Part shown: piece after piece, positions 393 to 38,199 of the stretch
Numbering within the stretch: position 1 is the first letter of the stretch
Layout of the letters: each line of letters starts with the position of its first letter
Source: Escherichia phage A221
Sequence record: ON862890.1
Length of the DNA stretch: 64,000 nt
Reading direction: 5' to 3' (one strand)
Translations under genes and position numbers: made by a program
The notes under the pieces: model-generated
What the model was told of the DNA's origin: nothing
Seen by the model: the letters and a program-made list of their open reading frames with translations, nothing else
The model's database searches: none

Positions 393-836
393 ATGTGTGA
401 TAAGAATTTCATTTTCATTAGTCCCGCCAAGAAACAGTTCTTCCGTAGCTCCGTTGGGGACAAGGTGGAAGGTTTCCGTAAATTCAAAGATTATCGCCTG
501 GCATGCGGTGATGTTGATTTTCAGAGCTTCGACAATGATCGCCAGGATTTGAACGATGAGGGTTGGACAGAAGTTCCATCCCCACAGTTTATCGATGTCA
601 AGCTGTACTACATGAAGGACAGTGGGAAGTATTATTCAGAGGGTGTGATCAAAATCAACCGTGGGGAGGCCGAGGCCGAACCTGCTAAGTCCTGGATGGA
701 GACTGTGGATAAAATCCGCTATCTGCTCGACTCAGGCAATTTGCCTGGTTTGGTTAAAGGTGCCCGGTACGAGGTCTTCGTGACCGGAGAAGGGCATCCA
801 GGTGGTTATCCACAACTGTTCCGCATTAACAACTGA
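393..836 (+). CDS. hypothetical protein (147 aa)
   Basis: Internal ATG of ORF 372-836 chosen because it carries the conserved AGGA-TCTATATC-ATG initiation motif. Confidence 0.5.
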   Translation: MCDKNFIFISPAKKQFFRSSVGDKVEGFRKFKDYRLACGDVDFQSFDNDRQDLNDEGWTEVPSPQFIDVKLYYMKDSGKYYSEGVIKINRGEAEAEPAKSWMETVDKIRYLLDSGNLPGLVKGARYEVFVTGEGHPGGYPQLFRINN

Positions 837-5445: not shown

Positions 5446-5473
5446 ATACCCCATAATCCTTGGGAGATTTTGT

Positions 5474-7731: not shown

Positions 7732-8400
7732 ATGCAAGAGATCACTCTCTCCGAACGTACACTTCAGTTGCTGGCCAACTTTGAGACCATCAACCCATCT
7801 ATCGTTCTGACACCGGGCAAGATGCTGCGCAGTATTAATGATTCTTCTACTGTGATCGCCGTGGCGCAGATCGAAGAAGACTTCCCGTTTGAGTTCCCGA
7901 TTCTGGACCTGACCAAACTTCTGGCCATCCAGCGCCTACCTTCCTTCAAAGGTGCCAAAGCCGAATTCCATCAGGACTACATCCTGTTGAAAGGCGAAAG
8001 TTCTCAGCTGCAATTCTGGCGTTCTGCTAAAGAACTCACTGTTGTTCCGGCTGACACCATTGAACTACCGTCTGTCGACTTTGAAGCGATCATCACTCCA
8101 GAGAAGATGAAAGAACTGACCCGCGCCTGTTCTACCCTCGGACACAAGACTGTGCGCCTGGTTGCTCAGGGTGGCAAAACTCGCCTGGTTGCAACCACCA
8201 CTACCCTGGACAACTCCAACAACTACACTGTTGAGCTGGGTGAAACCGCGCTGCCGGACTTCGTAATGCCGCTGGATGTTGCCAACCTGAAAATGATCGA
8301 AGGCAACTACACTCTGCGTGCATGTGCTGATCTACAGATGGTGAACTTCCAATCATCCGACGCGACGATCAATTACTTCGTCGGCGCACAGATTGAGTAA
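7732..8400 (+). CDS. 45: sliding clamp (gp45 family)
   Basis: 222 aa; N-terminal LLANFETINPSIVL and C-terminal ANLKMIEGNYTL resemble T4 gp45; sits before gp44/gp62. Confidence 0.85.
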   Translation: MQEITLSERTLQLLANFETINPSIVLTPGKMLRSINDSSTVIAVAQIEEDFPFEFPILDLTKLLAIQRLPSFKGAKAEFHQDYILLKGESSQLQFWRSAKELTVVPADTIELPSVDFEAIITPEKMKELTRACSTLGHKTVRLVAQGGKTRLVATTTTLDNSNNYTVELGETALPDFVMPLDVANLKMIEGNYTLRACADLQMVNFQSSDATINYFVGAQIE

Positions 8401-8481
8401 TCAATCTCCAGCCTGATGCTATAATGTGTGGGCGGGGGCGTTCCCCGCCTATTTGAAATGATTCTTCTACACGAGGCTGAA

Positions 8482-9471
8482 ATGTCTAATATCACAATTG
8501 TAAAAGACCAGTACGCTTGGGAAAACCGCTTCCGCCCTGACAACCTGGACGAGATTATCATCCCTCAAGACGTCCGCGCTAAAATCCATGGCTACATCAC
8601 CAGCGGTAACGGCAACATCCCGTCTATGCTGTTTTACTCCCCTCAGCCTGGTACTGGCAAGACCACTTCTGCTTTGGCCGTGTGTAATGAAATCGGTTGT
8701 AAGCAACCACTGATGATCAACGCATCCCTGGACAACAGCATTGACGTTATCCGTGACCGCGTGATTCAGTACTCTACTGGTGTGAGCGTATTCGGTGGCC
8801 GCAAAGTCGTTATCCTCGACGAAGTAGAGCGTCTGTCTATGGCGGCACAGGAGTCGCTGAAGGGTATTGTGGAGAAGGTCTCCAAGAACTGTTCATTCAT
8901 CCTGACCACCAACGCCAAGCAACGTGTGAACGAACCTCTGCGCTCTCGTTGCCGTGAAATCGACTTTATCTGGAATGAGACCGAGGCTGATGAGGTCAAA
9001 CTTCAGTTCATGCGCCGCTGTGCTGAAATCCTTCGCAGCGAAGGTGTTGAGTATGACCCTCCTGTGTTGGCTGCTATTGTCAAGCGCCATTTCCCTGATA
9101 ACCGCCGCATCATGGGTGTTCTACAGGATAACGTCACCACTTACGGCAAGATCGACGAACGTGCACTGGCTGTGTTAAAATCGGCCGATATGGGCATGTT
9201 GGTGAATATGTTGAAGGATAATGACTGGGCTGGGATGAAGCAGTGGGTGACCGACAACCAGAACTATATCACTGAAGACTTCTATTCCCGCTTCTTCCAG
9301 TTCTGTGTACCACAGGATAAAGAGAAGCAAATGTTGGTTCAGAATGAGTCTATCCCTGATCTGGTATGCGTGTGTGGTCAGTCTCAGATTGAACACCGTC
9401 AAGTCGGCGATGTCTGGCTGCATGCTGTGTTTTTCCTGACCAATGTCATGCTCAACATCAAGTGGAAGTGA
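8482..9471 (+). CDS. 44: clamp loader large subunit (gp44 family, AAA+)
   Basis: Internal ATG with GAGG RBS; Walker A PQPGTGKTT, Walker B VVILDEVE; follows gp45 as in T4. Confidence 0.85.
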   Translation: MSNITIVKDQYAWENRFRPDNLDEIIIPQDVRAKIHGYITSGNGNIPSMLFYSPQPGTGKTTSALAVCNEIGCKQPLMINASLDNSIDVIRDRVIQYSTGVSVFGGRKVVILDEVERLSMAAQESLKGIVEKVSKNCSFILTTNAKQRVNEPLRSRCREIDFIWNETEADEVKLQFMRRCAEILRSEGVEYDPPVLAAIVKRHFPDNRRIMGVLQDNVTTYGKIDERALAVLKSADMGMLVNMLKDNDWAGMKQWVTDNQNYITEDFYSRFFQFCVPQDKEKQMLVQNESIPDLVCVCGQSQIEHRQVGDVWLHAVFFLTNVMLNIKWK

Positions 9472-9475
9472 TATT

Positions 9476-9898
9476 ATGGCCGCCCTTGGATTGTTCGATT
9501 ACCTGGCTGCTCTGAACAGCAGCAAAGAAAACCTTTTGCGGTCTGATGACCCAGAAGTGTTGAAAGGATTCGACCCGTTTATGACGCGGCGTGGTTTAGC
9601 TCAGAGCAAAGACACTCTAGTGGCTGCGCAACAGATGAATAAGCTACATGCTATCACTCCATGGATGCAATGGTCATATGCCTTTTACACCATTCCGGCT
9701 CGGAAACGCTACGACAAATGGTCTAAGAAAGGTCCGATTGATCCTGACGTGAAGTTACTCTCAGAGTACTTCTACATCAGCATGGAGAAGGCATCGGAGT
9801 ACGTCCGTTTCTTGCCGAAGGAAGTCCTGGCCGAGATACGCGAGAAGATGAGACGCACTGAGCTGAACGCCAAAGCGAAACCGCGCAAGGCTAAATAG
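9476..9898 (+). CDS. 62: clamp loader small subunit (gp62 family)
   Basis: Start 5 nt after gp44 stop; motif PARKRYDKWSKK resembles T4 gp62 PRGKRYGKWAK; synteny. Confidence 0.65.
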   Translation: MAALGLFDYLAALNSSKENLLRSDDPEVLKGFDPFMTRRGLAQSKDTLVAAQQMNKLHAITPWMQWSYAFYTIPARKRYDKWSKKGPIDPDVKLLSEYFYISMEKASEYVRFLPKEVLAEIREKMRRTELNAKAKPRKAK

Positions 9899-12684: not shown

Positions 12685-14703
12685 ATGTCAGATTTTAAGC
12701 CCTTCGCAGTAGCTGTCAACAATAACGTGCTGGCCATGTCAGCAACTGGTCTGTTCATGACCAACATCGATAAAGATGCTCTGTGGGATCTGTATCTGTC
12801 TTCTTTCCCTGCTGGCACTAACCCGCTTTATCGTGAGCGTACCGAGCACGACTGCACCTGCTGTAAACAATTCATCCGTAACATCGGCGGTGTGGTCACC
12901 ATCGACTCCGACCTGAACGTGATCTCTATTTGGGATAACATTCAGCTGGGTAACGAATACGACGTTGTCGCTGCGGCGCTGTCAGCGTATGTTAAGCAGC
13001 ACGCAATCGTCGACGTGTACTTCAACGACACCAAGAAAGTTGGTGTTGAGTCGAATCACGAAATGAAAGACGGTATTGTCCGCACCTACAACCACTTCCA
13101 CACCGACCTGCTGGGCAGCTATGTTCTGCGGGCAGATACCATCGCTTCTAAGAAGGGTGAAATCCGCCAGGCGATTGAAGTGTTTGAGCGCGGCCTGCGT
13201 GAACTGTCTCTGGAATCGGCTGAAATCGTTCTTGAATTGATTGACCAGAATTCTCTGTATCGCGGTGAAGAGCACAAAGAGGCAGTGCAGGCGTTCGTGG
13301 TGAACAAGACCCTGTACGAACAAACTGCAGAAGAGAAACGCGCTCTGTGGGCTTGGCGCACTGGCTACCGTGCAAACGGTCATACCCCTCACGGCATTCG
13401 TAATACCGTGATTGGCTCTCTGCTGGTAGACCTCAATGAAGGCCGGGATCTGGAAACCGCCGTGAAGTCCTTTGAAGCCAAAGTCGCTCCGACGAACTAC
13501 AAGCGCCCAACCGCGCTGGTCACGAAGTCGATGATTGAAAACGCGCAGAAAGAAGTCGAAGCGCTGGGTCTGACTGATTCACTGGGTCGCCGTTATGCCG
13601 TGTATGACGATCTGACCATCAACAACGTTCTGTTCGCCGATCTGGCAGCTCAGAAGAAGATGGACCCGTTTGCTCAGCTGGCGTCTGAAGTGAAGACTCC
13701 GACCAAGTCCCTGGACAAGGTTGAAGAGATCACGATCGACGACTTCCTGACCAACGTGTTGCCAAAGGCGCATTCCCTGGAAGTACTGGTTGAAAACTCT
13801 CACATTGGCAACCTGATGTCCCTGATCGCTCCGGCTACCGCAGGCGCTCCTAACCTGTTCAAGTGGAACAACGGCTTCAGCTGGTCTTACAATGGCGAAG
13901 TGGCCGACTCTATCAAAGAGCGCGTAAAGACCGCAGGCGGCAATGTCGACAGTTTCCTCCGTGTGTCACTGGCTTGGCATAACAACGACGACCTGGATCT
14001 GAGCATGAACGATCCTCTTCACAACCACGTGTATTATCACAACCGTCGTTCGACAACTGGCGCAACTCTGGACATCGACATGAACGGTATGGACGGCATT
14101 GATCCAAACCGCCGTCCGGTGGAGAACATCTTCTTCAGCGATGAACGCAAGCTGCGTGATGGTCTGTACGAGTTCTATGTCACTAACTTCAGCCAGCGTG
14201 AAACCTGTGATATGGGATTCGAAATCGAAGTTGAATACAAAGGCCAGACCAAGCGTTTTTCGCATCCTGGCCTGAAGCACAAAGATCGCACTCTGGCTGT
14301 TGTGATTGATGTCCGCGCTGGACAAGTGGTAGACATCCGTTCTACCCTGAAAGACGACGCTCGCTCTCAGGAAATCTGGGGCATCAAGACCTCCGTCTTC
14401 CAGAAGGTACAGCTGGTTCTGAACTCACCAAACCATTGGGACGGCGAGCAGACTGGCAACAAGCACGTGTTCTTCATCCTGGAAGGTTGTGCTAACCCTG
14501 TCGGCACCCGTGGTTTCTATAACGAATATCTGAAGCCGGAACTTGATAAACACCGCAAGGTTTTTGAAATGTTAGGTGGTAAGATTAAAGTACAGCCAAG
14601 CACTGAGCAGCTGTCCGGTCTGGGCTTCTCTACCACCCAACGCAACCACGTGTTCGTGAAGGTGAGCGGCTCGTTCAACCGCACTGTGAAAGTTGTGTTC
14701 TAA
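12685..14703 (+). CDS. hypothetical large protein (672 aa)
   Basis: ORF track; AGGAAGATTACATC-ATG initiation motif; no polymerase, ligase or ATPase motifs seen. Confidence 0.6.
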   Translation: MSDFKPFAVAVNNNVLAMSATGLFMTNIDKDALWDLYLSSFPAGTNPLYRERTEHDCTCCKQFIRNIGGVVTIDSDLNVISIWDNIQLGNEYDVVAAALSAYVKQHAIVDVYFNDTKKVGVESNHEMKDGIVRTYNHFHTDLLGSYVLRADTIASKKGEIRQAIEVFERGLRELSLESAEIVLELIDQNSLYRGEEHKEAVQAFVVNKTLYEQTAEEKRALWAWRTGYRANGHTPHGIRNTVIGSLLVDLNEGRDLETAVKSFEAKVAPTNYKRPTALVTKSMIENAQKEVEALGLTDSLGRRYAVYDDLTINNVLFADLAAQKKMDPFAQLASEVKTPTKSLDKVEEITIDDFLTNVLPKAHSLEVLVENSHIGNLMSLIAPATAGAPNLFKWNNGFSWSYNGEVADSIKERVKTAGGNVDSFLRVSLAWHNNDDLDLSMNDPLHNHVYYHNRRSTTGATLDIDMNGMDGIDPNRRPVENIFFSDERKLRDGLYEFYVTNFSQRETCDMGFEIEVEYKGQTKRFSHPGLKHKDRTLAVVIDVRAGQVVDIRSTLKDDARSQEIWGIKTSVFQKVQLVLNSPNHWDGEQTGNKHVFFILEGCANPVGTRGFYNEYLKPELDKHRKVFEMLGGKIKVQPSTEQLSGLGFSTTQRNHVFVKVSGSFNRTVKVVF

Positions 14704-15179: not shown

Positions 15180-15590
15180 ATGAAACCTGTTATATGTGAT
15201 TACTGCGGCCTCCCAGCCGAATTCGTCGGTGGTGATGTTCTCTACCCTCATCGCCCTGACCTCCGCAATCTGAAGTTCTGGGTGTGCACTCCATGTGATG
15301 CCCGTGTCGGTTGCCATACCCATGGCGACGGCAGACAACCTTTGGGAAGGATGGCGAATGCCGCTCTCCGTGCTGCTAAGCAGGAAGCCCATAGATCGTT
15401 TGACCCATTGTGGAAAAGCGGAGAGAGGAGCAGGAGCGACGCTTATAGTTGGCTGGCGCATAAGCTGGGGATAAAGAAGCGTGAGTGTCATATTGGCTTG
15501 TTCGATATCGACATGTGCCGTAAAGTAGTTGTTGTCTGTCAACAATACGAGGCACATATCAATGTCAAAGGAAATACAAGAAGCGTTTGA
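15180..15590 (+). CDS. zinc-ribbon protein (137 aa)
   Basis: CDYCG...CTPCDARVGCH four-Cys motif; start chosen after terminator. Confidence 0.5.
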   Translation: MKPVICDYCGLPAEFVGGDVLYPHRPDLRNLKFWVCTPCDARVGCHTHGDGRQPLGRMANAALRAAKQEAHRSFDPLWKSGERSRSDAYSWLAHKLGIKKRECHIGLFDIDMCRKVVVVCQQYEAHINVKGNTRSV

Positions 15591-15867
15591 GAATCTAACT
15601 CAGGCGCTCACCAACTGCAACCGTCTCAACTATTGCAACGACCCATTGCAAAAGCTGAAGTCCCTGGTAGAATCAGAACTGGCTAAACTGGCCGAATACA
15701 ACGCCATCCAAGAAGACGTGGCGTTCATGTCGGACACGGTCGTAGACACCCTTCCGCGCGAAGTGTACAATGTCTTGGGCCGCATCACAAAGGTGGGTTT
15801 CCGTGAACCACAAGACGCCAAACCCACCCCCGAAATTCTTACATCCATCGTTGACTCGTTTAAGTGA
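15562..15867 (+). CDS. hypothetical protein (101 aa)
   Basis: Internal ATG with GAGG RBS; overlaps upstream gene by 29 nt. Confidence 0.4.
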   Translation: MSKEIQEAFENLTQALTNCNRLNYCNDPLQKLKSLVESELAKLAEYNAIQEDVAFMSDTVVDTLPREVYNVLGRITKVGFREPQDAKPTPEILTSIVDSFK

Positions 15868-15873
15868 GACGCC

Positions 15874-16107
15874 ATGTCTAAAGAGATTATCTTTACCGGG
15901 GCGGCGCTTGACACCATGTATGCCCTGTACAATCGTGGTCCACTGAGCATTGGCGATATCCCGTCTAAGTCAGGTCTGGACTTCCTGTTACGACATAAGC
16001 TGGTTGTGGCTGTGGTGGTCAGGGGTGAAACGCAATACGCCGGGTCGATGGCCATGGCTTCCCACTACAAACGTCAGACATGGAAGGGTGCTTCCTCCAA
16101 ATCCTGA
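15874..16107 (+). CDS. hypothetical protein (77 aa)
   Basis: ORF track. Confidence 0.4.
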   Translation: MSKEIIFTGAALDTMYALYNRGPLSIGDIPSKSGLDFLLRHKLVVAVVVRGETQYAGSMAMASHYKRQTWKGASSKS

Positions 16108-16261
16108 GTTTGTCAAAACCTTTTCAATATCAATAACGTCCAGTGTAAATGCTGGGCGTTTCAATTAACTCTTCGCAGTATAATATGCCATGACTAACAA
16201 ACAGAGGCCTGGCCCATGTCCGTGAAATACCTGGTGTTACTGAAGTGAAGGTCGACTAACC

Positions 16262-16432
16262 ATGACAGAACCATTCAAGAAAGCTGGTCTAGACACCATC
16301 GACCTCAGCTTTAAACCGAGCGAAACGCTGATGAGTCAGATTGAACTCAATCGCGACTTCCTTGAATATATGCTGGTCAAGCCGGAAGGTGAGGCCGAAG
16401 ACAACCCTGAAGAAGGCAATAACGATGATTGA
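16262..16432 (+). CDS. small acidic protein (56 aa)
   Basis: Translated by hand (MTEPFKKAGLDTIDLSF...EEGNNDD); stop overlaps vWA start. Confidence 0.3.
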   Translation: MTEPFKKAGLDTIDLSFKPSETLMSQIELNRDFLEYMLVKPEGEAEDNPEEGNNDD

Positions 16433-18626
16433 ATCATTAGAATTTAAGAATGCGGTTGCGACTGCTGCCCCGTCCAACCATGTAATCGTTGTAGACATTT
16501 CTGGCTCTATGTACCGTGCACTCCCTGAAGTCCGTAAGCATCTGAAGGAGAACCTGCCTTCCCTGGTGAAACCGGAAGACACTGTGAGTGTTCTATACTT
16601 CTCATCTCGTGGCGACTTTGGCACTGTGTTCGCTGGTCGCCAGGTTAGTGCTGCGTCTGACCTGAGCGAGCTGAACAAACTGATCGACCGCTTCCTACAA
16701 CCATCTGGCTGTACTGGTTTTGTTGAGCCGTTGAAACTGGCGATGGACACTGCTCGTGGCCTGAAGAAGCCTGGCTATGTCAACAACCTGGCGTTCATGA
16801 CTGACGGGTATGACAACTGCTGGCGTACCAACGAAATTCTACTGGTTGCTGAGACCCTGCCATTTGCTTTCGATAACATTACATTTATCGAATATGGCTG
16901 GTACTGTAACCGCGAACTGCTGGCGCAGATGGCCGAACGCTCTGGTGCTACTCACGTGTTTGCCGAAGGTCAGACCGAATACCAGACCGAGCTGGAAAAC
17001 GTGCTGAAGTCATCAGTGCCGAAGGTGGTTGTTGATGTGCCTCTGTTATACACCCATGCTATCTATGTTGAAAACGGCGTAGCAACTGTTCTGGCGGTAC
17101 AGCCGGATGAAGACCATCCTATCGGCCACGTGAGCATCCCTGAGAGCGTCACCAAGCTGTGGGTTGTAAACCCTAACATGATCGACCAGATGGATAGCCT
17201 GACGGACATCCAGGCGGCATACGTGCTGGCGTTCTACGGCGTACACATCATGGACGCGGACCTGGTGTGGGCTGCACTGAAGAAAACGGGTGACGTTCGC
17301 TTCATCAAACAGTACAGCAACTGCTTCACCAAGCAGGACTACTCCAACATCAAGAACGATCTGGTTCAGGCGATTGTTGACGACCAGCTGCGCGGCGTTG
17401 ACGGTATTGACTATGACCTGGTTCCAGCTGAAGATGCGACCACCGTCGTTGATGTGCTGACGTACCTGGCTGAAGCTGGTGTGCCTGTTGCTACCAAGCA
17501 TCCGATGTTCTCCTATAAGAGCATCGGGCGCGGTACTGTGCAGAAAACCGACGACACCGAAGACAAGCTGGCAGAACAGATCGCGAATGCTCAGTCCAAA
17601 GAAGAGCGTAAAGCCCTGGCTCTCAAGCTGGCAGAGCACGAAGAGTGGAACCCGACGTTCGAACCTACCAACGACCTGGGTGTTGTGCCAATCAGCGATT
17701 TGGTCTATAACTCCGAGCGCCCGAACATCAGTGTGCGTACAATTCAACACGGTACTGTGGCTGTGCCTGAATTCGCACAGAAGAAGTTTGGCCTGCCTGA
17801 AGAACTGGATACTTTCCAGTGGCGCAACTACACCATCGTCAAAGACGGTATCATTAACGTGAAGACTCTGCCGTTCAAGGCTGATATCGAAGTTGTACAG
17901 AAGCTGATCGAAATGGGTGTCCACGTGTTTGGTGGTCCGGAAGTGTTCATCCTGAACCTGGAAAGCGTACCGCTGGTCAACCGCGCCATGGTCAAAAACA
18001 TCAGTGCTGCTCAGTTCTTTGCGGATAATGTCCGTCTGGAAGCCCTGAAAGGCAAGCAGAAGGTGCTGAAGTTCTATCGAGACGCCCTGGTTGGTAAGGG
18101 CAACGCCAAAGGCCTGGCAGTACAGTACGGCGCTGAGGCGGCCGAGTTCCTGTCCTCCTACGGCATCCGCGATTACGGCTTCTCACCGAAGACTGAGACC
18201 AAAGAGTCTACCGACTTCTACATGAGCCGTGAGCTGAACGTGAAGATCGCTGGCGCTTCTTCTCTACCGTCTATCGCAGCGGTACAGAAGAAGATTGCCG
18301 AGAACAAGAAACTCAATGCTGGTGACTTGTTCATCGCCAATGCGCTGAAGGAGTACGAAGCATTCGTGAAGTCTCCTATGATCACTGCCGTGCCTGAAGC
18401 CTTACAGAAACAGCTGATCGAAAACTGGATCGACGCTGCTGCCAAGGCGGCCATCACCGAAGTCCGTGCCCTGAACAAGACACTGTCTAAAGTGGTGTAT
18501 GGTATCGTTGCTGGCCACGGCTGGTTCACCGACCTCGACCTGGAAGAGTCCACCATGGAAGTTGAAGTGGATGGCGTGAAGTACAAGGTCACTGCCGAAC
18601 TGACAGAGAAAGAAATCAAAATCTAA
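16425..18626 (+). CDS. large protein with N-terminal von Willebrand factor A (vWA) domain (734 aa)
   Basis: MIDAS-like VVDISGSM and downstream FMTDGYDN; about 500 aa C-terminal region unassigned; start at internal ATG. Confidence 0.7.
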   Translation: MIESLEFKNAVATAAPSNHVIVVDISGSMYRALPEVRKHLKENLPSLVKPEDTVSVLYFSSRGDFGTVFAGRQVSAASDLSELNKLIDRFLQPSGCTGFVEPLKLAMDTARGLKKPGYVNNLAFMTDGYDNCWRTNEILLVAETLPFAFDNITFIEYGWYCNRELLAQMAERSGATHVFAEGQTEYQTELENVLKSSVPKVVVDVPLLYTHAIYVENGVATVLAVQPDEDHPIGHVSIPESVTKLWVVNPNMIDQMDSLTDIQAAYVLAFYGVHIMDADLVWAALKKTGDVRFIKQYSNCFTKQDYSNIKNDLVQAIVDDQLRGVDGIDYDLVPAEDATTVVDVLTYLAEAGVPVATKHPMFSYKSIGRGTVQKTDDTEDKLAEQIANAQSKEERKALALKLAEHEEWNPTFEPTNDLGVVPISDLVYNSERPNISVRTIQHGTVAVPEFAQKKFGLPEELDTFQWRNYTIVKDGIINVKTLPFKADIEVVQKLIEMGVHVFGGPEVFILNLESVPLVNRAMVKNISAAQFFADNVRLEALKGKQKVLKFYRDALVGKGNAKGLAVQYGAEAAEFLSSYGIRDYGFSPKTETKESTDFYMSRELNVKIAGASSLPSIAAVQKKIAENKKLNAGDLFIANALKEYEAFVKSPMITAVPEALQKQLIENWIDAAAKAAITEVRALNKTLSKVVYGIVAGHGWFTDLDLEESTMEVEVDGVKYKVTAELTEKEIKI

Positions 18627-19788: not shown

Positions 19789-20072
19789 CACCATCAGAGA
19801 GAAGTTCTATCAAGGAGATGATCAGAGACAAGGCGTGTGTTGGTCATACTCAGTCAGAGAACATCTTGCGCCTGATGGTAATAAAGAACGATATCGATAA
19901 CAGCCGATTCCAATCAGCGCTCTACGGGCTTCTCGAGTTCGTTCTCCGCCAGGCTGATCTTGGTCCTGTCGGTACTCTTGATGATCTAATCAAGCTGTTG
20001 AACACGGGCGGGGAAACTTTCGACACCGCTCGTATCCTGATTGACGGTGGACCTGAAGAAGACGAGGTATAA
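19785..20072 (+). CDS. hypothetical protein (95 aa)
   Basis: ORF track; start overlaps upstream stop. Confidence 0.4.
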   Translation: MTPSERSSIKEMIRDKACVGHTQSENILRLMVIKNDIDNSRFQSALYGLLEFVLRQADLGPVGTLDDLIKLLNTGGETFDTARILIDGGPEEDEV

Positions 20073-20073
20073 T

Positions 20074-20232
20074 TTGGATAAAGAATTGGTTTGGGAAATT
20101 GTGAAGGGTGTCCTAGTAATAATCGCGGTGGTTTTCATCTTGGGTGGGAACTTCTTCTATTGGTTATTCCGATCCGACCAGAAACGTCGCGAACGCAAGG
20201 AGAAAGAGAGAAAGGATCGATGGATGCGCTAA
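20074..20232 (+). CDS. small single-pass membrane protein (about 52 aa), possible TTG start
   Basis: GAGGT 5 nt upstream of TTG; hydrophobic IVKGVLVIIAVVFILGG then basic tail; start uncertain. Confidence 0.3.
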   Translation: MDKELVWEIVKGVLVIIAVVFILGGNFFYWLFRSDQKRRERKEKERKDRWMR

Positions 20233-20264
20233 CTAAGGGATAACCCTATATCCCGAGGTGTGTC

Positions 20265-20714
20265 ATGTTCCTTACATCTTTTATTGACTGGTTGAACATC
20301 ATTAACGGCCTGAGGATTCCTGTTGGGAACCTCGGGCTTTCTCGTTCTTCTATGCCGCAAATCGATGCCGACAAACAAGAAGATTTTCACAAATATCTTG
20401 AAGACAACGGCGTGTCCATAGATGCTGTGCAAGTGCCCATCAAAATGCTTCGTCTCACCCAGAACGAAATCAACAAGATGAAGGTCTGGAAGATCATGAA
20501 GAACATCAGAAATAAGAAACCTATGGGTCGAGTTTGGGTGTCTTCTGACAATTACGTTGTTGACGGTTCTCACCGATTTGTCGCTGCGTTGAACATGGAC
20601 GGCAAACAGCGCATGAAGGTCTACAAAGTTGATTTGCCAGCGATGGAATTTGTTAAACTCGCTAAACAGTTTCAGGGTGTGCGATACAGAACGGTCTCAG
20701 ATTCGAGATACTAA
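20265..20714 (+). CDS. hypothetical protein, possible ParB-like nuclease domain
   Basis: GAGGTG RBS; motif VVDGSHRFVAAL resembles ParB/Srx DGxHR; weak. Confidence 0.45.
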   Translation: MFLTSFIDWLNIINGLRIPVGNLGLSRSSMPQIDADKQEDFHKYLEDNGVSIDAVQVPIKMLRLTQNEINKMKVWKIMKNIRNKKPMGRVWVSSDNYVVDGSHRFVAALNMDGKQRMKVYKVDLPAMEFVKLAKQFQGVRYRTVSDSRY

Positions 20715-20715
20715 T

Positions 20716-21549
20716 ATGGACGTCTATTCAGAACTTATCGAAATAGGAGCGAAACGTCATTTCGTAAACAAATATCTTTCGCTCATTTCTTCTTTTAGTC
20801 ATTACCAAGGCGTCGGGGAGAAGCATCACATATTACCTGTGGCATTGTTCCCCGAATATGCCACGGAATACGAAAACATCGTCAAACTGCCTCATAGGGT
20901 TCATTATATTGCCCATGTGTGTCTTGCTCTTGCGTTACCAGGTTCATGTATGGTAAATGCGATTATGATTTTGAAGCGGTTAGATAGTAGAGTCAACTCA
21001 CACCTGTTTGCGAAAATGCGCAAGAGATTCGCCGAAAGGCTTTCTGTGGTGAATGCAGGGGAAAATAATCCCATGTATGGCAAGAAGAGATCCCAGAAGG
21101 CAAAGAAAAAGACCTCGGAGTCTCTTAGAAATTTTTATAAATCTAAAAGAAAAGAAGATCCAGATTTAAAAGAATTTTTCTCGGAAAGGAATTCTAAAAT
21201 AAAACGGGGAAAAGATCACCATTCTTATGGGAATAAATTGACCAATAATCTTACTCCAGAACAAGAACGATGTAGAATAGAATCGGTCACCAAGACTTCC
21301 CGTGAAACCATGCCCTGGGAGAAGCCAAGATGGAAACCAGAAAGGGACAAATGGTGGTGTTGGGCTGCACATATACACTATCACATATTGAAAGGTAAGA
21401 CGAGAGGGGAAGCCCTGAAACAAGTATTCGGTTCCAATGACGCAGAAATTTGGGCACAGGTTCGGCCAATTATTCTACGGTTGGATAACGGTTGGGACCC
21501 TTTAACTTGCGAAAAATGGGTTAATCGTTATGGGGTGGAATACCAGTAA
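20716..21549 (+). CDS. HNH-family homing endonuclease with NUMOD-like repeats
   Basis: HHILPVALFPEY...LPHRVHYIAH HNH core; ENNPMYGKK and HHSYGNK repeats; AT-rich segment around 21100-21260. Confidence 0.65.
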   Translation: MDVYSELIEIGAKRHFVNKYLSLISSFSHYQGVGEKHHILPVALFPEYATEYENIVKLPHRVHYIAHVCLALALPGSCMVNAIMILKRLDSRVNSHLFAKMRKRFAERLSVVNAGENNPMYGKKRSQKAKKKTSESLRNFYKSKRKEDPDLKEFFSERNSKIKRGKDHHSYGNKLTNNLTPEQERCRIESVTKTSRETMPWEKPRWKPERDKWWCWAAHIHYHILKGKTRGEALKQVFGSNDAEIWAQVRPIILRLDNGWDPLTCEKWVNRYGVEYQ

Positions 21550-21643
21550 ACCACCCGTTTCTGAATACGATAGTTTATTGAATCCCTTTACTCATCATGG
21601 TGAGCCGCCTATCATTTCATCCAATGAAATAAGGAGAATCACC

Positions 21644-22330
21644 ATGAAACGTTTAATCCTCGGGGTTGTGCTGGCTGGTCTGGCATTACCCGCCGCTACC
21701 AAGCTGAACTCCACAGGTGATAAACTGTGGTCCGACCTTTCCTATTGTGCTGGGTTCTCCCAGGCGGTTGCCATCGACAAGTCTGGTTCCATAGAGAACT
21801 TCGCTGAACTCTGGAACACAGGCAACGTCTCCACCGCTGTCGTCAATGCCGGAATTGAGTTCAACCGTTACAAACAGGGAGCCTATAACCTCAAGGGCTA
21901 CCTCAATGACGAAGAATTTAACCGTGGAGGCATGGAGGCTGGCGATTTGATCATGACTGGGCGTATGGGCACCCAAGGCCGAATGACAGTCAGACAGTGC
22001 CGTTCGCTCCCTTCTCCGGCATTACAGAAGGGGGTGCAGATAGGCCGCCGCCACCTGAACCTTATCAACGATGGCAACCAGTGCGTCAAAGTATTCGAAT
22101 ACAGCGCTACGCAGACCTCTGATCGCGTCCTGAAGAAGGAATGGCGCACCCGCGCTCTTGGTCTCAGGGCATGGTTGGTGGAGAACGATTATTACTTTGA
22201 AGACAGGGTTCAGAACGGTCTGAAAGACCTGGCCACGAATCTGAGCGTGAACCTTGATGATCCTCGCATGTCGCGCGAACTCCAGCAGACTCGTGTTGAC
22301 TGCGACAATATGATGAAGGAGAACGAGTGA
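21644..22330 (+). CDS. secreted protein (signal peptide)
   Basis: Internal ATG with AAGGAG RBS; MKRLILGVVLAGLALPAA. Confidence 0.5.
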   Translation: MKRLILGVVLAGLALPAATKLNSTGDKLWSDLSYCAGFSQAVAIDKSGSIENFAELWNTGNVSTAVVNAGIEFNRYKQGAYNLKGYLNDEEFNRGGMEAGDLIMTGRMGTQGRMTVRQCRSLPSPALQKGVQIGRRHLNLINDGNQCVKVFEYSATQTSDRVLKKEWRTRALGLRAWLVENDYYFEDRVQNGLKDLATNLSVNLDDPRMSRELQQTRVDCDNMMKENE

Positions 22331-24848: not shown

Positions 24849-25127
24849 ATGAATCGTACTGAATTTGTTGCCCACATTGCTTCGACCCAGAATATCACCA
24901 AAGGCGAAGCGGAGAAAGTAGTGGCATCCTTTATCGACGGTGTTAAAACTGCAGTTGCTGCAGGCGCATCTGTACAGCTGGTCGGCTTCGGTGCGTTCGA
25001 AGTGAAACACCAAGAAGCGCGTGAAGGCCGCAACCCTCTGAACGGCCAGACCATTCAGATTGCGGCGAAAAACGTTGTGAAATTCAAAGTGGGCGAAGGT
25101 CTGAAGAACGCTGCCAACGGCAAGTAA
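24849..25127 (+). CDS. HU/IHF-family DNA-binding protein
   Basis: 92 aa; VQLVGFGAFEV...REGRNPLNGQTIQIAAKNVVKFKVG is a typical HU arm signature. Confidence 0.8.
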   Translation: MNRTEFVAHIASTQNITKGEAEKVVASFIDGVKTAVAAGASVQLVGFGAFEVKHQEAREGRNPLNGQTIQIAAKNVVKFKVGEGLKNAANGK

Positions 25128-25169: not shown

Positions 25170-25200
25170 AAAAGAGAAAGCCGGAGCATTGTACTCCGGC
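25170..25200 (+). terminator. rho-independent terminator
   Basis: Stem GCCGGAG/CTCCGGC followed by TTTTTCGTT. Confidence 0.65.
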
Positions 25201-25255
25201 TTTTTCGTTCTTGGGGATCGGGTAAACTATAGGCGAATCCCATAGGAGGAAGAAA

Positions 25256-26974
25256 GTGACAGCATTCAACCAATATACCAAGGCGCTTGACGGCGTCGGA
25301 CCAGTCAGCATAGACCGCATCAAGTCTCTTGCCACTGAGTTCTTCCCGTATGACACCGCCAACCCCGGCCAGATGGAATGCATCGTTGAAGCCATTGATG
25401 CCCTTGTGAATAAGAAATTCAAACACGTGATCATCGAGGCTCCGACTGGTGTAGGTAAATCCCTCATCGGCACTACCATCCATAATGTGCTTCGCCATTT
25501 GGTTCTTGAGCACAACCCGTATGGTCAGTTCCGCACGTCTATCACGACGCCGACCAAAGGTTTACAGGATCAGTATGCAGCAGAGAAAGCCGTGGCGATA
25601 GATATCCTGAAGGGCAAGAAGAACTACCGTTGCCACATCAGTCCCGACCTATACTACAACGCCATTCAGTGCCGTATGGCATGCCGTGATGGCCACTGTA
25701 GTAAGAATCGTTGCCCATATGTTCAGGCGCGTCGACAGTGGACCGACGTCTCCTCCCTGCGCTGCACCAACGCCGCCATGATGGTGGAGATGTGCACGAC
25801 GATCTGTATGAAGCCGGAAAACCGCGCCGATATGCTGATCCTTGACGAGTGTCATAAGATGCCCTCTACGCTGCTAGAGCATACTATCATGGAATACAAC
25901 ATAAAGGCTGTGGAAGGGTTGCTTACGATCCCCGAGGGAGTGCCTATCGTGGAGACCATCAAGGATATCATCATCCGCACAGAGAACTATGAATTGGGCA
26001 AGCTGTATTCCCTGTCTGGTGAGATGCATGCGATATTTGATGAACTGCACGGCAAGGTTGAAGCCCTGTTGGAAACTCTTGAGGAACTGGTAGAGGACGA
26101 GCGCCTGACTGAAGCCCAGGTGATGAAGCTGTCTGATATTATTGATACTCTTCACAACCTCAGCGACTACTGTGGTATCATGGGGCAGACCAACGCCAGC
26201 ACTTTCATCGTACAGGAGAAGGACAAGGGTATGATTCAGTTCAAGCCTGTCATCGCCTCTGATGTATCCCAGTTCGGCCTGTTCCGCAAGGGTGACTACC
26301 ACGTCCACATGTCGGCTACCATTTGTGGGATTGACTCGTACGCCCGGTCACTGGGTATCCGCGAGGGTGAGTACCACAAGATACAGATCGGCAACCCTAT
26401 CCCGATTGAGAACCGGAAAGTCAACTACATGCCCATCATGAAGATGACAGCGAACATGGGTGACTACGAGATGAAGAAGCTGGCTGAATACGTGGATGAA
26501 ATTATCGCGTTCCACCCTGGGCAGTCTGGCATCATTCACACAGTCAGTTATGACCGCGCCCTGGCTCTACAAAAGTTCAGTAAGTACCGGAATATGATTC
26601 ACGTTCCTCGTACTCGTAAGGCTCTGATGGACATCATGGAACACGCGTTCAGGACGAAGACACCTTGTGTCATCGCCAGTCCGGCCATGGAAGAGGGGTA
26701 TGACTTCAAAGGCGATTATAGTCGATTTCAGATCTTGATCAAGGTGCCATATGATTACCTTGGTGATCCTCTGGTGGCCCACGTCAACAGTGTGGACCCA
26801 TCGGCGTACTTCAGGATGGCGGTACTGCGTATCGTTCAGATGTGTGGGCGTTCGGTCAGGGGTGTGAATGACTGGGCTGCGACGTACATCCTTGATTCTT
26901 CTTTTGAATCACTGATGATGCGCAACCCAGAGTTCTTCCCCGCTTGGTTCACTGATGCCGTGTTTGAGGTTTAG
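25256..26974 (+). CDS. XPD/DinG-like SF2 DNA helicase with Cys-rich insert
   Basis: GTG start with AGGAGGA RBS; Walker A APTGVGKS, DECH box LILDECH, Cys cluster between them. Confidence 0.65.
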   Translation: MTAFNQYTKALDGVGPVSIDRIKSLATEFFPYDTANPGQMECIVEAIDALVNKKFKHVIIEAPTGVGKSLIGTTIHNVLRHLVLEHNPYGQFRTSITTPTKGLQDQYAAEKAVAIDILKGKKNYRCHISPDLYYNAIQCRMACRDGHCSKNRCPYVQARRQWTDVSSLRCTNAAMMVEMCTTICMKPENRADMLILDECHKMPSTLLEHTIMEYNIKAVEGLLTIPEGVPIVETIKDIIIRTENYELGKLYSLSGEMHAIFDELHGKVEALLETLEELVEDERLTEAQVMKLSDIIDTLHNLSDYCGIMGQTNASTFIVQEKDKGMIQFKPVIASDVSQFGLFRKGDYHVHMSATICGIDSYARSLGIREGEYHKIQIGNPIPIENRKVNYMPIMKMTANMGDYEMKKLAEYVDEIIAFHPGQSGIIHTVSYDRALALQKFSKYRNMIHVPRTRKALMDIMEHAFRTKTPCVIASPAMEEGYDFKGDYSRFQILIKVPYDYLGDPLVAHVNSVDPSAYFRMAVLRIVQMCGRSVRGVNDWAATYILDSSFESLMMRNPEFFPAWFTDAVFEV

Positions 26975-27738
26975 TAACCCGCAACGAAGGACAGATGGCA
27001 CTTGACATTCGGTTCCAACGACGTCACAGAAACCGTCATATTGTCCGTATCTTGGCTGAAGTCAATGGTGGCGAGAGGTTTGGTCTGAATATGGTTGTAG
27101 ACACTGTAGATCAGATCCTCGCCACGATACCCTACCTTCCCGTCGGTGTCTTGCCAATGACCCAGTGTCTCATCGTAGACATGCACTCTGAACTCGATCA
27201 TATGGAAGAGTGCCTTGGGGATGTCCTTGAGTACGCTGGTGCCAACCACGGGAATTTCTATGCTGGAATCATTGGAGTTCCCTTCATAGACCGAAGCCCA
27301 TGCAAAGGTAGGATCACCCCCAGCAACAGGGGTTCGCTTCCAGTATTGGAATTCTGGGTTGCCCGAAGCGTTCTTCTGAAGTAGAATGACCTCACCACCT
27401 TTGAAGTTCGAGGTATCGATGTCGCCTCGCTGAAGTTCATCTGCTGGAGATCCAATAAATTTCCAGCCTTCGCGATCCAGTAAAGACTTATAATAGTCGG
27501 TGAACACGTTGCTGTCTTCTGCATCGTTGATGGCATCTTTGAGACCTTGGCCTGTCACCATCTCGTTGAGCTTCAACCACATGTTCTTGACAGCAGAAGC
27601 TGCTGCGACTTGTCCAGCAGTCCCACCTGCAGCATAATCATAGATGATATCTTCTGACTTGATAGCATCATAGATAGAGAGGAGCAATTGCTCAATCTGC
27701 GGGGCGGTGAGACTGAAACGATATGCGCGGGGTGCCAT
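26971..27738 (-). CDS. hypothetical late protein (255 aa)
   Basis: Start at internal Met with AGAGGAA RBS; exact TATAAATA 35 nt upstream on minus strand. Confidence 0.5.
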   Translation of the reverse strand: MAPRAYRFSLTAPQIEQLLLSIYDAIKSEDIIYDYAAGGTAGQVAAASAVKNMWLKLNEMVTGQGLKDAINDAEDSNVFTDYYKSLLDREGWKFIGSPADELQRGDIDTSNFKGGEVILLQKNASGNPEFQYWKRTPVAGGDPTFAWASVYEGNSNDSSIEIPVVGTSVLKDIPKALFHMIEFRVHVYDETLGHWQDTDGKVGYRGEDLIYSVYNHIQTKPLATIDFSQDTDNMTVSVTSLEPNVKCHLSFVAGY

Positions 27739-27783: not shown

Positions 27784-28311
27784 ATGATAGAAATTTATTC
27801 TGACGGGGGTTCTAACCCGAAGACCAACCAGGCCGCAGGATGGGCATTTGTCATCAGGCCAATAACGGGTATGCAATGGAAGGTGTTCTTCGGTCATCTA
27901 CCTCCCCCGTCCACTAACAATATCGCCGAGTTGTTGGGTGTGACCAACGCATTGAAGCTACTGTGGGCATTCTCAGGAAAGGGTGAGCGCAGAATACCAA
28001 AGGCAACAATTTGGTCTGACAGCCAATATGCTATCAAGAGCGTCACCGAATGGCGAGCGAAGTGGGAGTATCAGGGTTTCCCAGAAAAGAACGTTGAACT
28101 CATCAAAGATCTGTTCAGAATCTATGATCTCGTTTGTTCAATTTGTGATGTTGAACTAAAATGGGTTAAGGGTCATGCGGGGCACGAAGGCAACGAACTT
28201 GCCGATGACTGGGCCACAGCAGCCAAAAACGACAGCAACTTCCTGATTGAGAATGACAAGATCTCGGTGAAGAAGGTTGTTGGATCTTTTGATGAATTTA
28301 TCGGTATCTGA
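27784..28311 (+). CDS. rnhA: ribonuclease HI (bacterial RnhA type)
   Basis: IEIYSDGG, TNNIAEL, WSDSQYAI, KWVKGHAGHEGNELAD match RNase HI catalytic motifs; TATATC-ATG start motif. Confidence 0.8.
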   Translation: MIEIYSDGGSNPKTNQAAGWAFVIRPITGMQWKVFFGHLPPPSTNNIAELLGVTNALKLLWAFSGKGERRIPKATIWSDSQYAIKSVTEWRAKWEYQGFPEKNVELIKDLFRIYDLVCSICDVELKWVKGHAGHEGNELADDWATAAKNDSNFLIENDKISVKKVVGSFDEFIGI

Positions 28312-34769: not shown

Positions 34770-35045
34770 ATGAAAATTATCCTCGACGCATATATCCGCC
34801 ACGGTCAGAAATACCTGATGGCCAAGGTTTACGACGGCGAAGAATTGATCCACGCCCAGACCGCCCCAGCTGCCCAGCTGCGCGAAATCATGTCACGCGA
34901 CTTCCCTGGCGTTGAAATGGTAGAGCCTGCCAACCAGGCTGAAGTAGACAAAGAGTGGGAGCGCGAATGGAGTCCAGCGGCTATCGCTCGGGCTGAAAAG
35001 AATTGGTCTAACCGCGAAAACGCAAACCGCCCTTTCCGCCGTTAA
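34770..35045 (+). CDS. hypothetical protein (91 aa)
   Basis: CAGGAACTATATC-ATG motif. Confidence 0.5.
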   Translation: MKIILDAYIRHGQKYLMAKVYDGEELIHAQTAPAAQLREIMSRDFPGVEMVEPANQAEVDKEWEREWSPAAIARAEKNWSNRENANRPFRR

Positions 35046-35478: not shown

Positions 35479-38199
35479 ATGTCAAAGCTAAGTTTCCTCC
35501 AGTTCATGCAGGAAAGAGATCAGTTGGACGAAGCGTTCAACTCCGCTCCGTATGAGCTGACCATGGGCAAGAAGAACGCAGGCGATGTGTTCTTCACCTT
35601 CATCGACGAAGATGAAAAGGAATACCGTATTCAGTTCTATACCCCTCAGGGGCTGGGTAAGAGTGTTCGTCAGGTTTTCATCGGCCAGAAGCGCGGCTCC
35701 GTCTATCCTGACGCCATCGCTCGCTTCAAGAACCCAATGCGCGTTATCGCTTCCATGATCGAAGCGACCAAACAATTCATGGCGACTCCTCTGGGTAAGA
35801 CCATCGATGGCTTTGCTGTCAACTTCTCTAAGAAAGCGCTGGATCGCGGTATGACCCTGATTCCTAAGATCATCCGCCAGTCCGGCCTGAAACAGAAACT
35901 GAATGTCATGGACCTGACCTACGCGCCTGTCCCCGACCGTGGTTATGTGTGGCTGGTCCGCAAGGGTAAAGATCCGGCGCAGGTATTTGACGGTCCGAAG
36001 ATGCAGGGTATCACCTGGGACGACCCAGACAAGGTCGGTGACGTTCCGGTTCAGAACAATACTCCGGATGTGGGTGTGTCATCTTCTGTTGATAATTCCA
36101 ACGGATGGAAATTAACTTCAAACGGGGATCAGCCCATGTTGTTATGGGCTGGTAAGGAGAGAGGCCGCATGAACACGGCAAATATCGCTCCCCACTACAA
36201 TGAGCCGGGCGTGTATGTTGGCGCATACATGAATGAGAAACCTGTGCGTGGGCAAAGTGCTGATTTCATTGCTCGTCAGTTGAAATTACCGCAAGTCCCT
36301 ATCAATATCCTGAATGATTTCACCATGGCGTCTACAAAATTTTGGAAAGGTTCTCAAAACAGTTCAGACAGAAATAACCCAGCCAACATTATCGGTTCTG
36401 GAACTGCTGTTATTGATGCCAAACGACTTGGTGCTCGAGAAGTAAACGTGGAACGATTCAAAAACGGTGTTCGCATGCGTTCTCAAAACGGTGACGTCGA
36501 CATCAGTATTTCCGACCCAGACTTTTCAAATGCAGCAAGTGCGACTGATGCTGCCACTGCCTCTGTTGTGGTCAAAAACGGGCGTTACGAAGGTGCCATC
36601 AATTCAAAGCGCAAGATTGCCCGCATCTCGAACGAGCAGGGTACTGAATGGGATATCATCGGTGTCAACGGGGAAACCCTTGTCTCTATCAAGTTGAACA
36701 AAGTGTCTAAATCCGCATCGGATTCGACCGAGGGTGCAACCAGTGTTGATCAATTACGTGACAGCGGTTTCATCGCTCGTGTTCTGGGTATCATTGATAC
36801 CAACGTTGGGCTGGACACTTCTATTCTTCCTGGTGAAAACATCCGTCGTGTGGGCGCTGGTCGTTACACGACAGCAGGCGGGTTGGTTATCGTTGTCAAC
36901 TTCACAAACGTCCTCGCTGGTTTCGTTCAATACTCAGTTTTCAGCGAAATTGCTGAAGAGGAGAGCGTGGCCAAAGGTAGCGCCCGTGACGTCGCCAATG
37001 CGGTAATTGCGTCCATCTTTGAGGTTGCCAAGACCCAGTACACTGGCAAATGGGAAATTAGCGCAGTGCCAACAAGCGCTCCATATCCTATCAAAGCCAT
37101 TCGCCGTTCTCGGGGCTGGGGTTATGTGGAAACCGCAAACTGGACTCTGACAGTGTCCGACGCTGTCCTGAATCGTGTGAAGCCAGGGAAAACTGCTCTA
37201 CTGGAACTCATCAAAGAACCTCCGCGTGGCAAGCACCCGCTGGAAATCATCCCAGAGAAGGGCGACAAGACCCTGATGCTGAAAGATCGTATTACCGGGG
37301 CCATCTATGGTTCTATCGACCTGAATGCCCAAGGCGCTGATCTGGTCAACTCTGGAACCCTGAAGATACCAAGCAACGCCATGGTGTTTGGTGAGACTGT
37401 CAACGGTATGTCCATCACTTGGTCTGGCGTCAATTTCCCGAAAACTGGGAAGTATGATGGTGCTGTATTGACCACGAATGTGACCTATTACTACGACAAA
37501 GGCAAAGTGGCGATCACGCCTATTGTATCCAATAAAGGTCGTACCCTGAACAATCCGAAGACATATGAACTTACTTTGAAGAAAGATATTGTTCAGGCCG
37601 TGATCGATGAAATTTCTTCTAAAATGGAAATGATATCTCGGAATATACAAACTCTGAAAAGCACGTCGTATAATCCGAAACAAGTATTTTTGGACGACAT
37701 TTCTGTTGACAACAACGGTTCAGTCCTTTGGCGCGGGTACGACATGGCGGATCGCCGCACTAATGAATTTATGTTGGGTATCCTGTCCAAAGAAACCGAG
37801 AGACTGGAGAAAGAGTCGAGTACTGCGAAGAAGACTGGTGCCGACCTTGCGGCATACGCCGACTCCATCCGCGACAACGCACCAAAAGGCCGCGACCTGG
37901 ATTGGCAGATCTATGCAAGCCGTGATGGTCAGACTCTGAACGTGGACTGGGATATCACCTTCCGCCGCAACACAACTGAAGGGGCATATCGCGAGTTCAA
38001 ATCTCAGATTGACCGCGCCAACCAGTACCTGCAGACTCTGTACCGGGATGCGAAGTCCAAGGGTTACAACCCGACTGAACCAAACCTGATGACTCTGGAT
38101 AGCGCCCAGCAGTCTGACCAGTGGGCACGAGACTACGGGGAAGGCGCATACAGCGAGTACGAGCAGTCCCTGGGTGGCAACATGCAGATTAAGATCTGA
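35479..38199 (+). CDS. large hypothetical protein (906 aa)
   Basis: AGGAG RBS; long uninterrupted ORF; no family recognised. Confidence 0.6.
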   Translation: MSKLSFLQFMQERDQLDEAFNSAPYELTMGKKNAGDVFFTFIDEDEKEYRIQFYTPQGLGKSVRQVFIGQKRGSVYPDAIARFKNPMRVIASMIEATKQFMATPLGKTIDGFAVNFSKKALDRGMTLIPKIIRQSGLKQKLNVMDLTYAPVPDRGYVWLVRKGKDPAQVFDGPKMQGITWDDPDKVGDVPVQNNTPDVGVSSSVDNSNGWKLTSNGDQPMLLWAGKERGRMNTANIAPHYNEPGVYVGAYMNEKPVRGQSADFIARQLKLPQVPINILNDFTMASTKFWKGSQNSSDRNNPANIIGSGTAVIDAKRLGAREVNVERFKNGVRMRSQNGDVDISISDPDFSNAASATDAATASVVVKNGRYEGAINSKRKIARISNEQGTEWDIIGVNGETLVSIKLNKVSKSASDSTEGATSVDQLRDSGFIARVLGIIDTNVGLDTSILPGENIRRVGAGRYTTAGGLVIVVNFTNVLAGFVQYSVFSEIAEEESVAKGSARDVANAVIASIFEVAKTQYTGKWEISAVPTSAPYPIKAIRRSRGWGYVETANWTLTVSDAVLNRVKPGKTALLELIKEPPRGKHPLEIIPEKGDKTLMLKDRITGAIYGSIDLNAQGADLVNSGTLKIPSNAMVFGETVNGMSITWSGVNFPKTGKYDGAVLTTNVTYYYDKGKVAITPIVSNKGRTLNNPKTYELTLKKDIVQAVIDEISSKMEMISRNIQTLKSTSYNPKQVFLDDISVDNNGSVLWRGYDMADRRTNEFMLGILSKETERLEKESSTAKKTGADLAAYADSIRDNAPKGRDLDWQIYASRDGQTLNVDWDITFRRNTTEGAYREFKSQIDRANQYLQTLYRDAKSKGYNPTEPNLMTLDSAQQSDQWARDYGEGAYSEYEQSLGGNMQIKI

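Follow-up and report, generated by a model that had tools for sequence, protein, structure and literature searches.

The window analysed here is a stretch of 64,000 nucleotides from Escherichia phage A221 (ON862890.1), a member of the Ackermannviridae (Aglimvirinae), and our subject is a helicase gene that lies within it at positions 25256..26974 of the plus strand. The list of open reading frames (ORFs) holds one long ORF at exactly this location, and matching coding sequences (CDSs) carry the label "ATP-dependent helicase" or "DNA helicase" in phages PC3, AV101, CBA120 and others, the helicase label being already on the gene in more than 170 genomes. The ORF is a real, conserved and previously annotated gene. 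It shares 99.3% nucleotide identity with its counterpart in Escherichia phage PC3, to which the whole window aligns in collinear blocks of ~97-99% identity. An earlier note, made from the DNA letters alone, had described the product as an XPD/DinG-like helicase with a cysteine-rich insertion suggestive of an iron-sulfur (Fe-S) cluster domain. The family that it named is upheld by the hidden Markov model search that it had called for, with Pfam, NCBIfam, PDB profile, hhalign and fold evidence all in agreement.

The phage protein is a superfamily-2 (SF2) DNA helicase of the XPD/DinG (Rad3-like) family, an assignment that we hold with near certainty. Pfam models matching the protein include Helicase_C_2 (PF13307; 4.8e-12, 46.7 bits against a cut-off of 25.3), ResIII and DEAD. 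A family profile, consisting of an alignment of 67 homologs, was searched against the PDB and found E. coli DinG first (6.8e-19), with further matches to F. magna DinG, T. acidophilum XPD, yeast Rad3, human XPD, S. acidocaldarius XPD, FANCJ and CHL1. Alignment of the same profile by hhalign to E. coli DinG (sequence taken from MG1655) gave a probability of 99.2 over 511 columns. The overall fold of the AlphaFold2 (AF2) model (predicted local distance difference test 90.9, predicted template modeling score 0.89) is closest to solved XPD/DinG structures, the top Foldseek match in the PDB being DinG (6fws, 1.7e-27) and the best matches comprising DinG, XPD and CasDinG.

Within the family, the curated subfamily models were all rejected. 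The best partial NCBIfam matches are DinG and YoaA, at 66.5 and 55.8 bits against cut-offs of 598 for DinG proper (NF008729 equivalog) and 680 for YoaA (NF053712 equivalog). The Rad3/XPD subfamily model (TIGR00604) matches only the C-terminal part, at 23.3 bits against a cut-off of 246.95, the Csf4 equivalog (TIGR03117) reaches 11.7 bits (E 0.053, cut-off 400) and the DnaQ-DinG equivalog likewise scores far under its curated cut-off. The phrog_2488 "DNA helicase" profile gives a full-length match (E 8e-260, 864.5 bits), in which residues 19-572 cover positions 3-579 of 579. Judged by these scores, the phage helicase is not an ortholog of DinG, YoaA, Rad3/XPD or Csf4 and belongs to a separate, mostly viral clade, phrog_2488.

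Motifs I, Ia, II, III, V and VI are all present, with key residues invariant in the 67 diverse homologs of the profile alignment (table 1). These residues are P63, G65, G67 and K68 in the Walker A motif; L103, Q104 and Q106 in motif Ia; D197, E198 and H200 in the DECH box; T355, C357 and G358 in motif III; and Q528, G531, R532, R535 and G536 in motif VI. Between motifs II and III lies an Arch-type insertion (residues ~205-340), which aligns with the DinG/XPD arch region by hhalign, hmmsearch and fold matches and comprises, in the AF2 model, long helices at 217-241, 255-279 and 286-311 followed by a beta hairpin at 316-331. The protein ends directly after motif VI, with no added domains for partner binding.

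Table 1. Features of the helicase gene and its surroundings in the window (positions are those of the 64,000-nucleotide stretch; residues are those of the helicase).
Feature	Residues	Position	Strand	Basis or remark
Helicase CDS, GTG start, stop included	572 aa	25256..26974	+	ORF list
Motif I / Walker A, PTGVGKS	63-69	25442..25462	+	translation; aligns with DinG APTGVGKT
Motif Ia, TPTKGLQDQY	98-107	25547..25576	+	aligns with DinG STANVALQDQ (hhalign)
Compact Fe-S-type module	~120-166	25613..25753	+	Cys conservation, hhalign
Invariant Cys	C126	25631-25633	+
Invariant Cys	C139	25670-25672	+
Clade-specific fifth Cys	C143	25682-25684	+
Invariant Cys	C148	25697-25699	+
Invariant Cys	C153	25712-25714	+
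Motif II / Walker B, DECH	197-200	25844..25855	+	translation, alignment
Arch-type insertion, boundaries approximate	~205-340	25868..26275	+	AF2 secondary structure
Motif III, SATICG	353-358	26312..26329	+	aligns with DinG SATL, XPD SGTL
Second RecA-like motor domain, Helicase_C_2	465-565	26648..26950	+	Pfam PF13307
Motif V, SPAMEEGYDF	475-484			within second motor domain
Motif VI, QMCGRSVRG	528-536	26837..26863	+
Shine-Dalgarno AGGAGG, 6 nt before GTG		25244..25249	+	read from sequence
Terminator-like hairpin, AAAGCCGGAG..CTCCGGCTTT then T-rich run		25177..25215	.	terminator scan and sequence
PD-(D/E)XK exonuclease		4699-5445		precedes UvsW-like helicase
UvsW-like SF2 helicase		5381-6982		Pfam UvsW_N
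HU-like gene		24849-25127		upstream of helicase
Convergent gene, phrog_3833		26971-27738	-	no Pfam match
RNase HI, cellular type		27784-28311		PF00075, 4.6e-25

The cysteine-rich region that the earlier note saw between Walker A (PTGVGKS) and DECH is borne out by the composition of the protein. The helicase has 14 cysteines (2.4%, against 1.17% in the 21 other long ORFs of the window), nine of which lie between the two motifs, in residues 126-199 (permutation test, P 0.0002 for any 74-residue segment with at least nine), and five of these (126, 139, 143, 148 and 153) fall within 28 residues (permutation P 0.024). The clustering exceeds chance, and conservation is far stronger evidence than clustering. 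Counted over 119 full-length homologs, down to ~35% identity, each of C126, C139, C148 and C153 is a cysteine in all 119, and C143 is present in only 42, essentially the Ackermannviridae-like clade. All four are retained in viruses as distant as Halorubrum virus HRTV-15, Rhizobium phage RHph_TM3_3_6, methanogen virus vir080 and Vibrio phage D533, and in an alignment with cellular homologs (81 rows, comprising 80 loci and the query) they are found in 81, 78, 67 and 81 rows, respectively. Lack of cysteine conservation among homologs, which the note held would undo its reading, is not what is found, and the Fe-S helicase interpretation therefore stands.

Comparison with DinG bears on what these cysteines do. 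The hhalign alignment pairs C126 with C120, C143 with C194, C148 with C199 and C153 with C205 of E. coli DinG, and the nearly invariant R159 with R211. We take C120, C194, C199 and C205 to be the cluster ligands of DinG, the alignment itself showing only that cysteines stand at those positions. DinG R211 is a residue of the Fe-S domain that contacts DNA (PMC6300356), and the ligands of YoaA are C108, C168, C173 and C179 (PMC9826845), a pattern with the same C-terminal spacing as in DinG. A CCCC motif between motifs Ia and II is the 4Fe-4S ligand set of DinG-like proteins, and the Fe-S domain is required for unwinding in the XPD/DinG family (PMC3378879, PMC11981726). The phage signature, C-x12-C-x8-C-x4-C, spans 28 residues against 86 in E. 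coli DinG, the shortest Fe-S module among those that we compared. C139 stands one helical turn before C143, the position aligned with DinG C194, and the phage protein carries both; the conservation pattern points to the invariant C139, rather than C143, as the likelier second ligand. With four cysteines invariant and three of them aligned with C120, C199 and C205 of DinG, the Fe-S-type domain of the earlier note gains support at the level of homology, and C126, C139, C148 and C153 probably hold a [4Fe-4S] cluster.

Two further cysteines, C199 (25850-25852) in the DECH box and C357 (26324-26326) after motif III, are found in 110 and 118 of the 119 homologs, respectively. They co-occur in the viral clade (C/C in 108 of 118), and Deinococcota homologs carry A/L at these positions in 76 of 80. 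They could form a pair across motifs II and III, either for packing or with redox sensitivity, or shared ancestry may be all that lies behind the pattern.

Homologs of the helicase were found by tblastn in 497 phage records, including Ackermannviridae of both subfamilies together with Tedavirus and Acinetobacter members, Vibrio and Rhizobium phages, haloarchaeal Hafunaviridae, a methanogen virus and, partially, Lak megaphages; Delftia phage phiW-14 is among the protein matches. Plasmids were essentially negative for homologs, with one partial halophile match. Species-representative genomes yielded 258 relatives, many of them on Trueperaceae/Deinococcales chromosomes (27-31% identity, ~510 residues, matching at ~8001-9530 of the loci) with a tighter C-x11-C-x8-C-x2-C module. 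Based on its occurrence in many viruses and on Deinococcota chromosomes, the clade is mostly viral with a cellular branch, and the Trueperaceae/Deinococcales homologs are apparently this uncharacterised branch. Their neighbors in the Trueperaceae look like housekeeping genes (phosphoenolpyruvate carboxylase, LipA/LipB, an Lrp-type regulator), names that come from reading the sequence and are unconfirmed. A 2025 review of bacterial DinG-like proteins divides them into ten subgroups, with no discussion of members encoded by phages (PMC11981726). One viral homolog, in Yersinia phage YerA41 (3989-5434, 481 residues), is without the entire cysteine module; it adjoins topoisomerase III and phage RNA polymerase subunits and is a viral counterpart of the bacterial sDinG and vestigial-FeS forms.

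The helicase gene is embedded in a replication module with the order UvsW-like helicase, clamp, clamp loader and regA, then HU-like protein, helicase, phrog_3833 gene, RNase HI, gp55, gp47 and gp46, the clamp, clamp-loader and regA order being as annotated in PC3 and CBA120. The segment from helicase to gp46 has the same order in Vibrio phage D533 (45% protein identity), and in Rhizobium, Aeromonas and Acinetobacter phages the homolog adjoins replication genes but not RNase H. A partnership with RNase HI was considered and rejected, as the order is lost in the Aeromonas, Acinetobacter, Rhizobium, halovirus and YerA41 contexts; the adjacency is thus probably inherited gene order and not evidence of partnership. 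The RNase HI is of the cellular type, unlike T4 rnh, which is a FEN-like enzyme. Some records name the convergent phrog_3833 gene "virion structural protein". There is a 4-nt overlap between its 3' end and the helicase stop codon, and its longest ORF, extending to 27897, would overlap the start of the RNase H gene. A link between the helicase and thymidine hypermodification, a trait of phiW-14 and the Ackermannviridae, in both of which homologs occur, is not supported: in CBA120 the helicase lies tens of kilobases from the thymidylate-synthase-like cluster, and its family occurs also in archaeal viruses and on Deinococcota chromosomes.

Upstream, the hairpin between the HU-like gene and the helicase occupies 25177-25203 and is GC-rich, with a 10-bp stem and T-rich runs flanking both sides. 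It looks like a bidirectional intrinsic terminator, a feature of the context and not of the protein, and a terminator in this position means that the helicase would open a new transcription unit. A promoter scan of the 40 nt after the hairpin, directly upstream of the helicase, found no sigma-70-like promoter.

T4 has the helicases gp41, Dda and UvsW. The helicases annotated in the CBA120 and PC3 genomes are only gp41 (with gp59; the gp41 gene lies outside the window), the UvsW-like protein and the DinG/XPD-type helicase. A tblastn search with T4 Dda against these two genomes and the window gave a best E value of 0.47, on an unrelated P-loop. The earlier note had remarked that a helicase of this kind is not part of the classic T4 replication set; this is true for T4, but it marks no anomaly here because the phage belongs to the Ackermannviridae, in which the gene is family-wide.

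We consider it probable that the gene encodes an Fe-S-dependent 5'-3' accessory helicase of phage replication and recombination that occupies the niche of Dda. The protein combines two RecA-like motor domains bearing all catalytic motifs with an Arch-type insertion and a compact four-cysteine module between motifs Ia and II. By homology, C126, C139, C148 and C153 are predicted to carry the [4Fe-4S] cluster, with C143 as a clade-specific extra cysteine, and the cluster would shape the wedge or pore that splits duplex DNA. We further predict that the enzyme translocates 5'->3' on single-stranded DNA at the expense of ATP; all characterised members of the XPD/DinG family have 5'-3' polarity (PMC3378879, PMC11981726). 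Its gene context suggests an accessory helicase of the T4-like replication/recombination machinery, whose task would be to remove or reshape D-loops, R-loops, forks or bound proteins. The Dda-like 5'-3' niche is probably filled by this helicase because the phages have gp41 and a UvsW-like protein but no Dda, and for a Dda-like accessory role taken by itself we see the chances as evenly balanced.

Several points weigh against this interpretation. The scores fall far under the cut-offs for DinG, YoaA, Rad3 and Csf4, so that the functions of those orthologs transfer only loosely. The second ligand is ambiguous, the invariant C139 having no DinG ligand as its partner and C143, which does pair with one, being restricted to a minority of homologs. 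Cluster binding, polarity and substrates are all properties that we infer for the helicase. In Aeromonas phiA8-29 and Acinetobacter nACB2 the helicase does not adjoin RNase HI, and a missing Dda offers no more than negative evidence that its function has been taken over. A full-text literature search found no characterisation of any phage XPD/DinG-like helicase or member of the clade.

Among the alternatives, the four cysteines might bind zinc or staple the fold without forming a 4Fe-4S cluster, leaving an XPD/DinG-like helicase without redox-active metal chemistry. So short a span (28 residues against 86 in DinG) would suit such a role, and the Deinococcota version, C-x11-C-x8-C-x2-C, superficially resembles a zinc knuckle. 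The module, however, sits exactly at the position of the Fe-S domain between motifs Ia and II, three of its cysteines stand opposite cluster ligands of DinG, both proteins have the flanking CPY..R motif and reviews give a CCCC motif at this site as 4Fe-4S ligands (PMC11981726, PMC3378879), all of which makes either role unlikely. The integrity of the motor argues against a degenerate, catalytically dead protein with a structural or scaffolding role. Loss of helicase activity has been proposed for sDinG and some ExoDinG proteins (PMC11981726), and the YerA41 homolog has lost the cysteine module altogether, but K68, D197, E198, H200, T355, Q528, R532 and R535 are invariant in 67 diverse homologs and we find this alternative extremely improbable.

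Other roles can be proposed for an active enzyme. One is a part in conflict with the host, by stripping or outrunning host defence or DNA-bound proteins or as a CRISPR type IV DinG-like effector, and it is suggested by the best PADLOC model, "typeIV_DinG; CAS-IV-A; associated", which matches over nearly the full length (2.8e-51), and by the CasDinG and Hna structures among the fold matches. The annotated relatives nevertheless have no cas genes or CRISPR array, the canonical Csf4 models match poorly (TIGR03117, E 0.053; PDLC01729, 1.3e-06), CasDinG is not among the sequence-profile PDB matches, a search of plasmids, where type IV systems usually reside, brought up one partial match, and the gene is embedded among replication genes in several phage lineages. 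We accordingly rejected a CRISPR type IV functional assignment on the weak canonical models, the lack of cas context and the single partial plasmid match, read the PADLOC "IV-A associated" DinG match as family-level similarity and regard a host-conflict role in general as improbable. A very small chance attaches to a transcription or damage-verification role like that of XPD in TFIIH, in which the enzyme would open DNA for gp55 late transcription or serve an excision-repair-like pathway. The gene for the late sigma factor gp55 lies two genes downstream and that for an HU-like protein is adjacent, and XPD structures from TFIIH match the fold well; yet there are no extra partner-binding domains after motif VI, TIGR00604 (Rad3) scores ~23 against a cut-off of ~247 bits with bacterial DinG and YoaA above XPD, and the proximity to gp55 follows a conserved T4-like gene order that is lost in other lineages.

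A broader form of the accessory-helicase interpretation is tentative and, in our view, rather doubtful: that the clade represents a minimal natural XPD-family Fe-S helicase, with a module of ~45 residues, and a dedicated replacement for Dda in viruses with T4-like replisomes, where it clears R-loops, D-loops or protein blocks from the phage genome. These viruses may comprise the Ackermannviridae, the related Vibrio and Rhizobium phages, phiW-14 and the haloarchaeal and methanogen viruses, and the helicase would possibly act with the nearby cellular-type RNase HI. If this were true, phage replication would depend on the Fe-S assembly machinery and redox state of the host.

Should the main inference of an Fe-S-dependent accessory helicase hold, the therapeutically used Ackermannviridae (of Salmonella, E. 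coli O157, Klebsiella, Shigella and Dickeya) would carry such an enzyme in their replication module, which would tie phage DNA metabolism to the host supply of iron-sulfur clusters and to oxidative stress. The protein would also offer a small, soluble-looking model of 572 residues for DNA splitting by a minimal Fe-S/Arch pore, relevant to the XPD/FANCJ/RTEL1 family, and an example of T4-type replisomes exchanging accessory helicases, Dda for a DinG-like enzyme. Current understanding is not overturned: this is a well-known family, with a well-known fold and likely chemistry, and the helicase label is already in place.

The window holds other features away from the helicase. An ORF at 20629-21549 bears a NUMOD3 motif, typical of homing endonucleases, and coincides with a dip in GC content to 0.448 at 20001-22000; the segment 20697-21552 is without a megablast match to PC3 and is probably a mobile endonuclease insertion. 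Further segments unmatched to PC3 lie at 15546-16409, 34774-35043 and 36048-36361, and in PC3 the clamp and clamp-loader genes are separated by an additional ORF of ~650 bp. The region of replication genes also contains three large, conserved ORFs for proteins of 761, 906 and 672 residues: the first (16341-18626) has an N-terminal VWA domain, the second (35479-38199) is a phrog_3867 protein and has no Pfam match, and the third (12685-14703) likewise has no Pfam match.

The closest known systems are E. coli DinG (6FWR/6FWS) and its paralog YoaA, which are the best sequence and Foldseek matches and share with the phage helicase the SF2 core, a Helicase_C_2-type second domain, the Arch, a four-cysteine module between motifs Ia and II and the C..CPY/F..R signature. 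DinG is larger, however, at 716 residues against 572, and only ~16-21% identical; a helical insert of ~70 residues between its first and second cysteines is missing from the phage helicase, and the invariant second ligand of the latter, C139, is shifted relative to DinG C194. The gene is phage-encoded, and neither an SOS nor a HolC context applies to it. The archaeal and eukaryotic XPD proteins (Rad3; T. acidophilum, S. acidocaldarius, human) differ in their cysteine spacing, and the phage helicase is without their TFIIH-interaction regions. CasDinG (Csf4) has a vestigial Fe-S domain without cysteine ligands (PMC10450177, PMC11981726), and sDinG has no Fe-S domain (PMC11981726); unlike both, the phage helicase keeps four invariant cysteines, and it has no cas context.

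The nearest cellular relatives found are the compact DinG-like proteins of the Trueperaceae/Deinococcales, of which we know of no characterisation. They have in common with the phage helicase the short architecture and the compact four-cysteine module, but are ~510 residues long, carry DEAH rather than DECH and do not belong to a phage replication module. T4 Dda, a superfamily-1B helicase, may be a functional analogue, being a non-replicative 5'-3' helicase in a T4-type system, although it belongs to another superfamily, shows no homology and has no Fe-S module. Set beside these systems, the phage helicase adds a new, uncharacterised member to a familiar kind of enzyme, its notable features being a compact Fe-S-type module and a plausible role in place of Dda.

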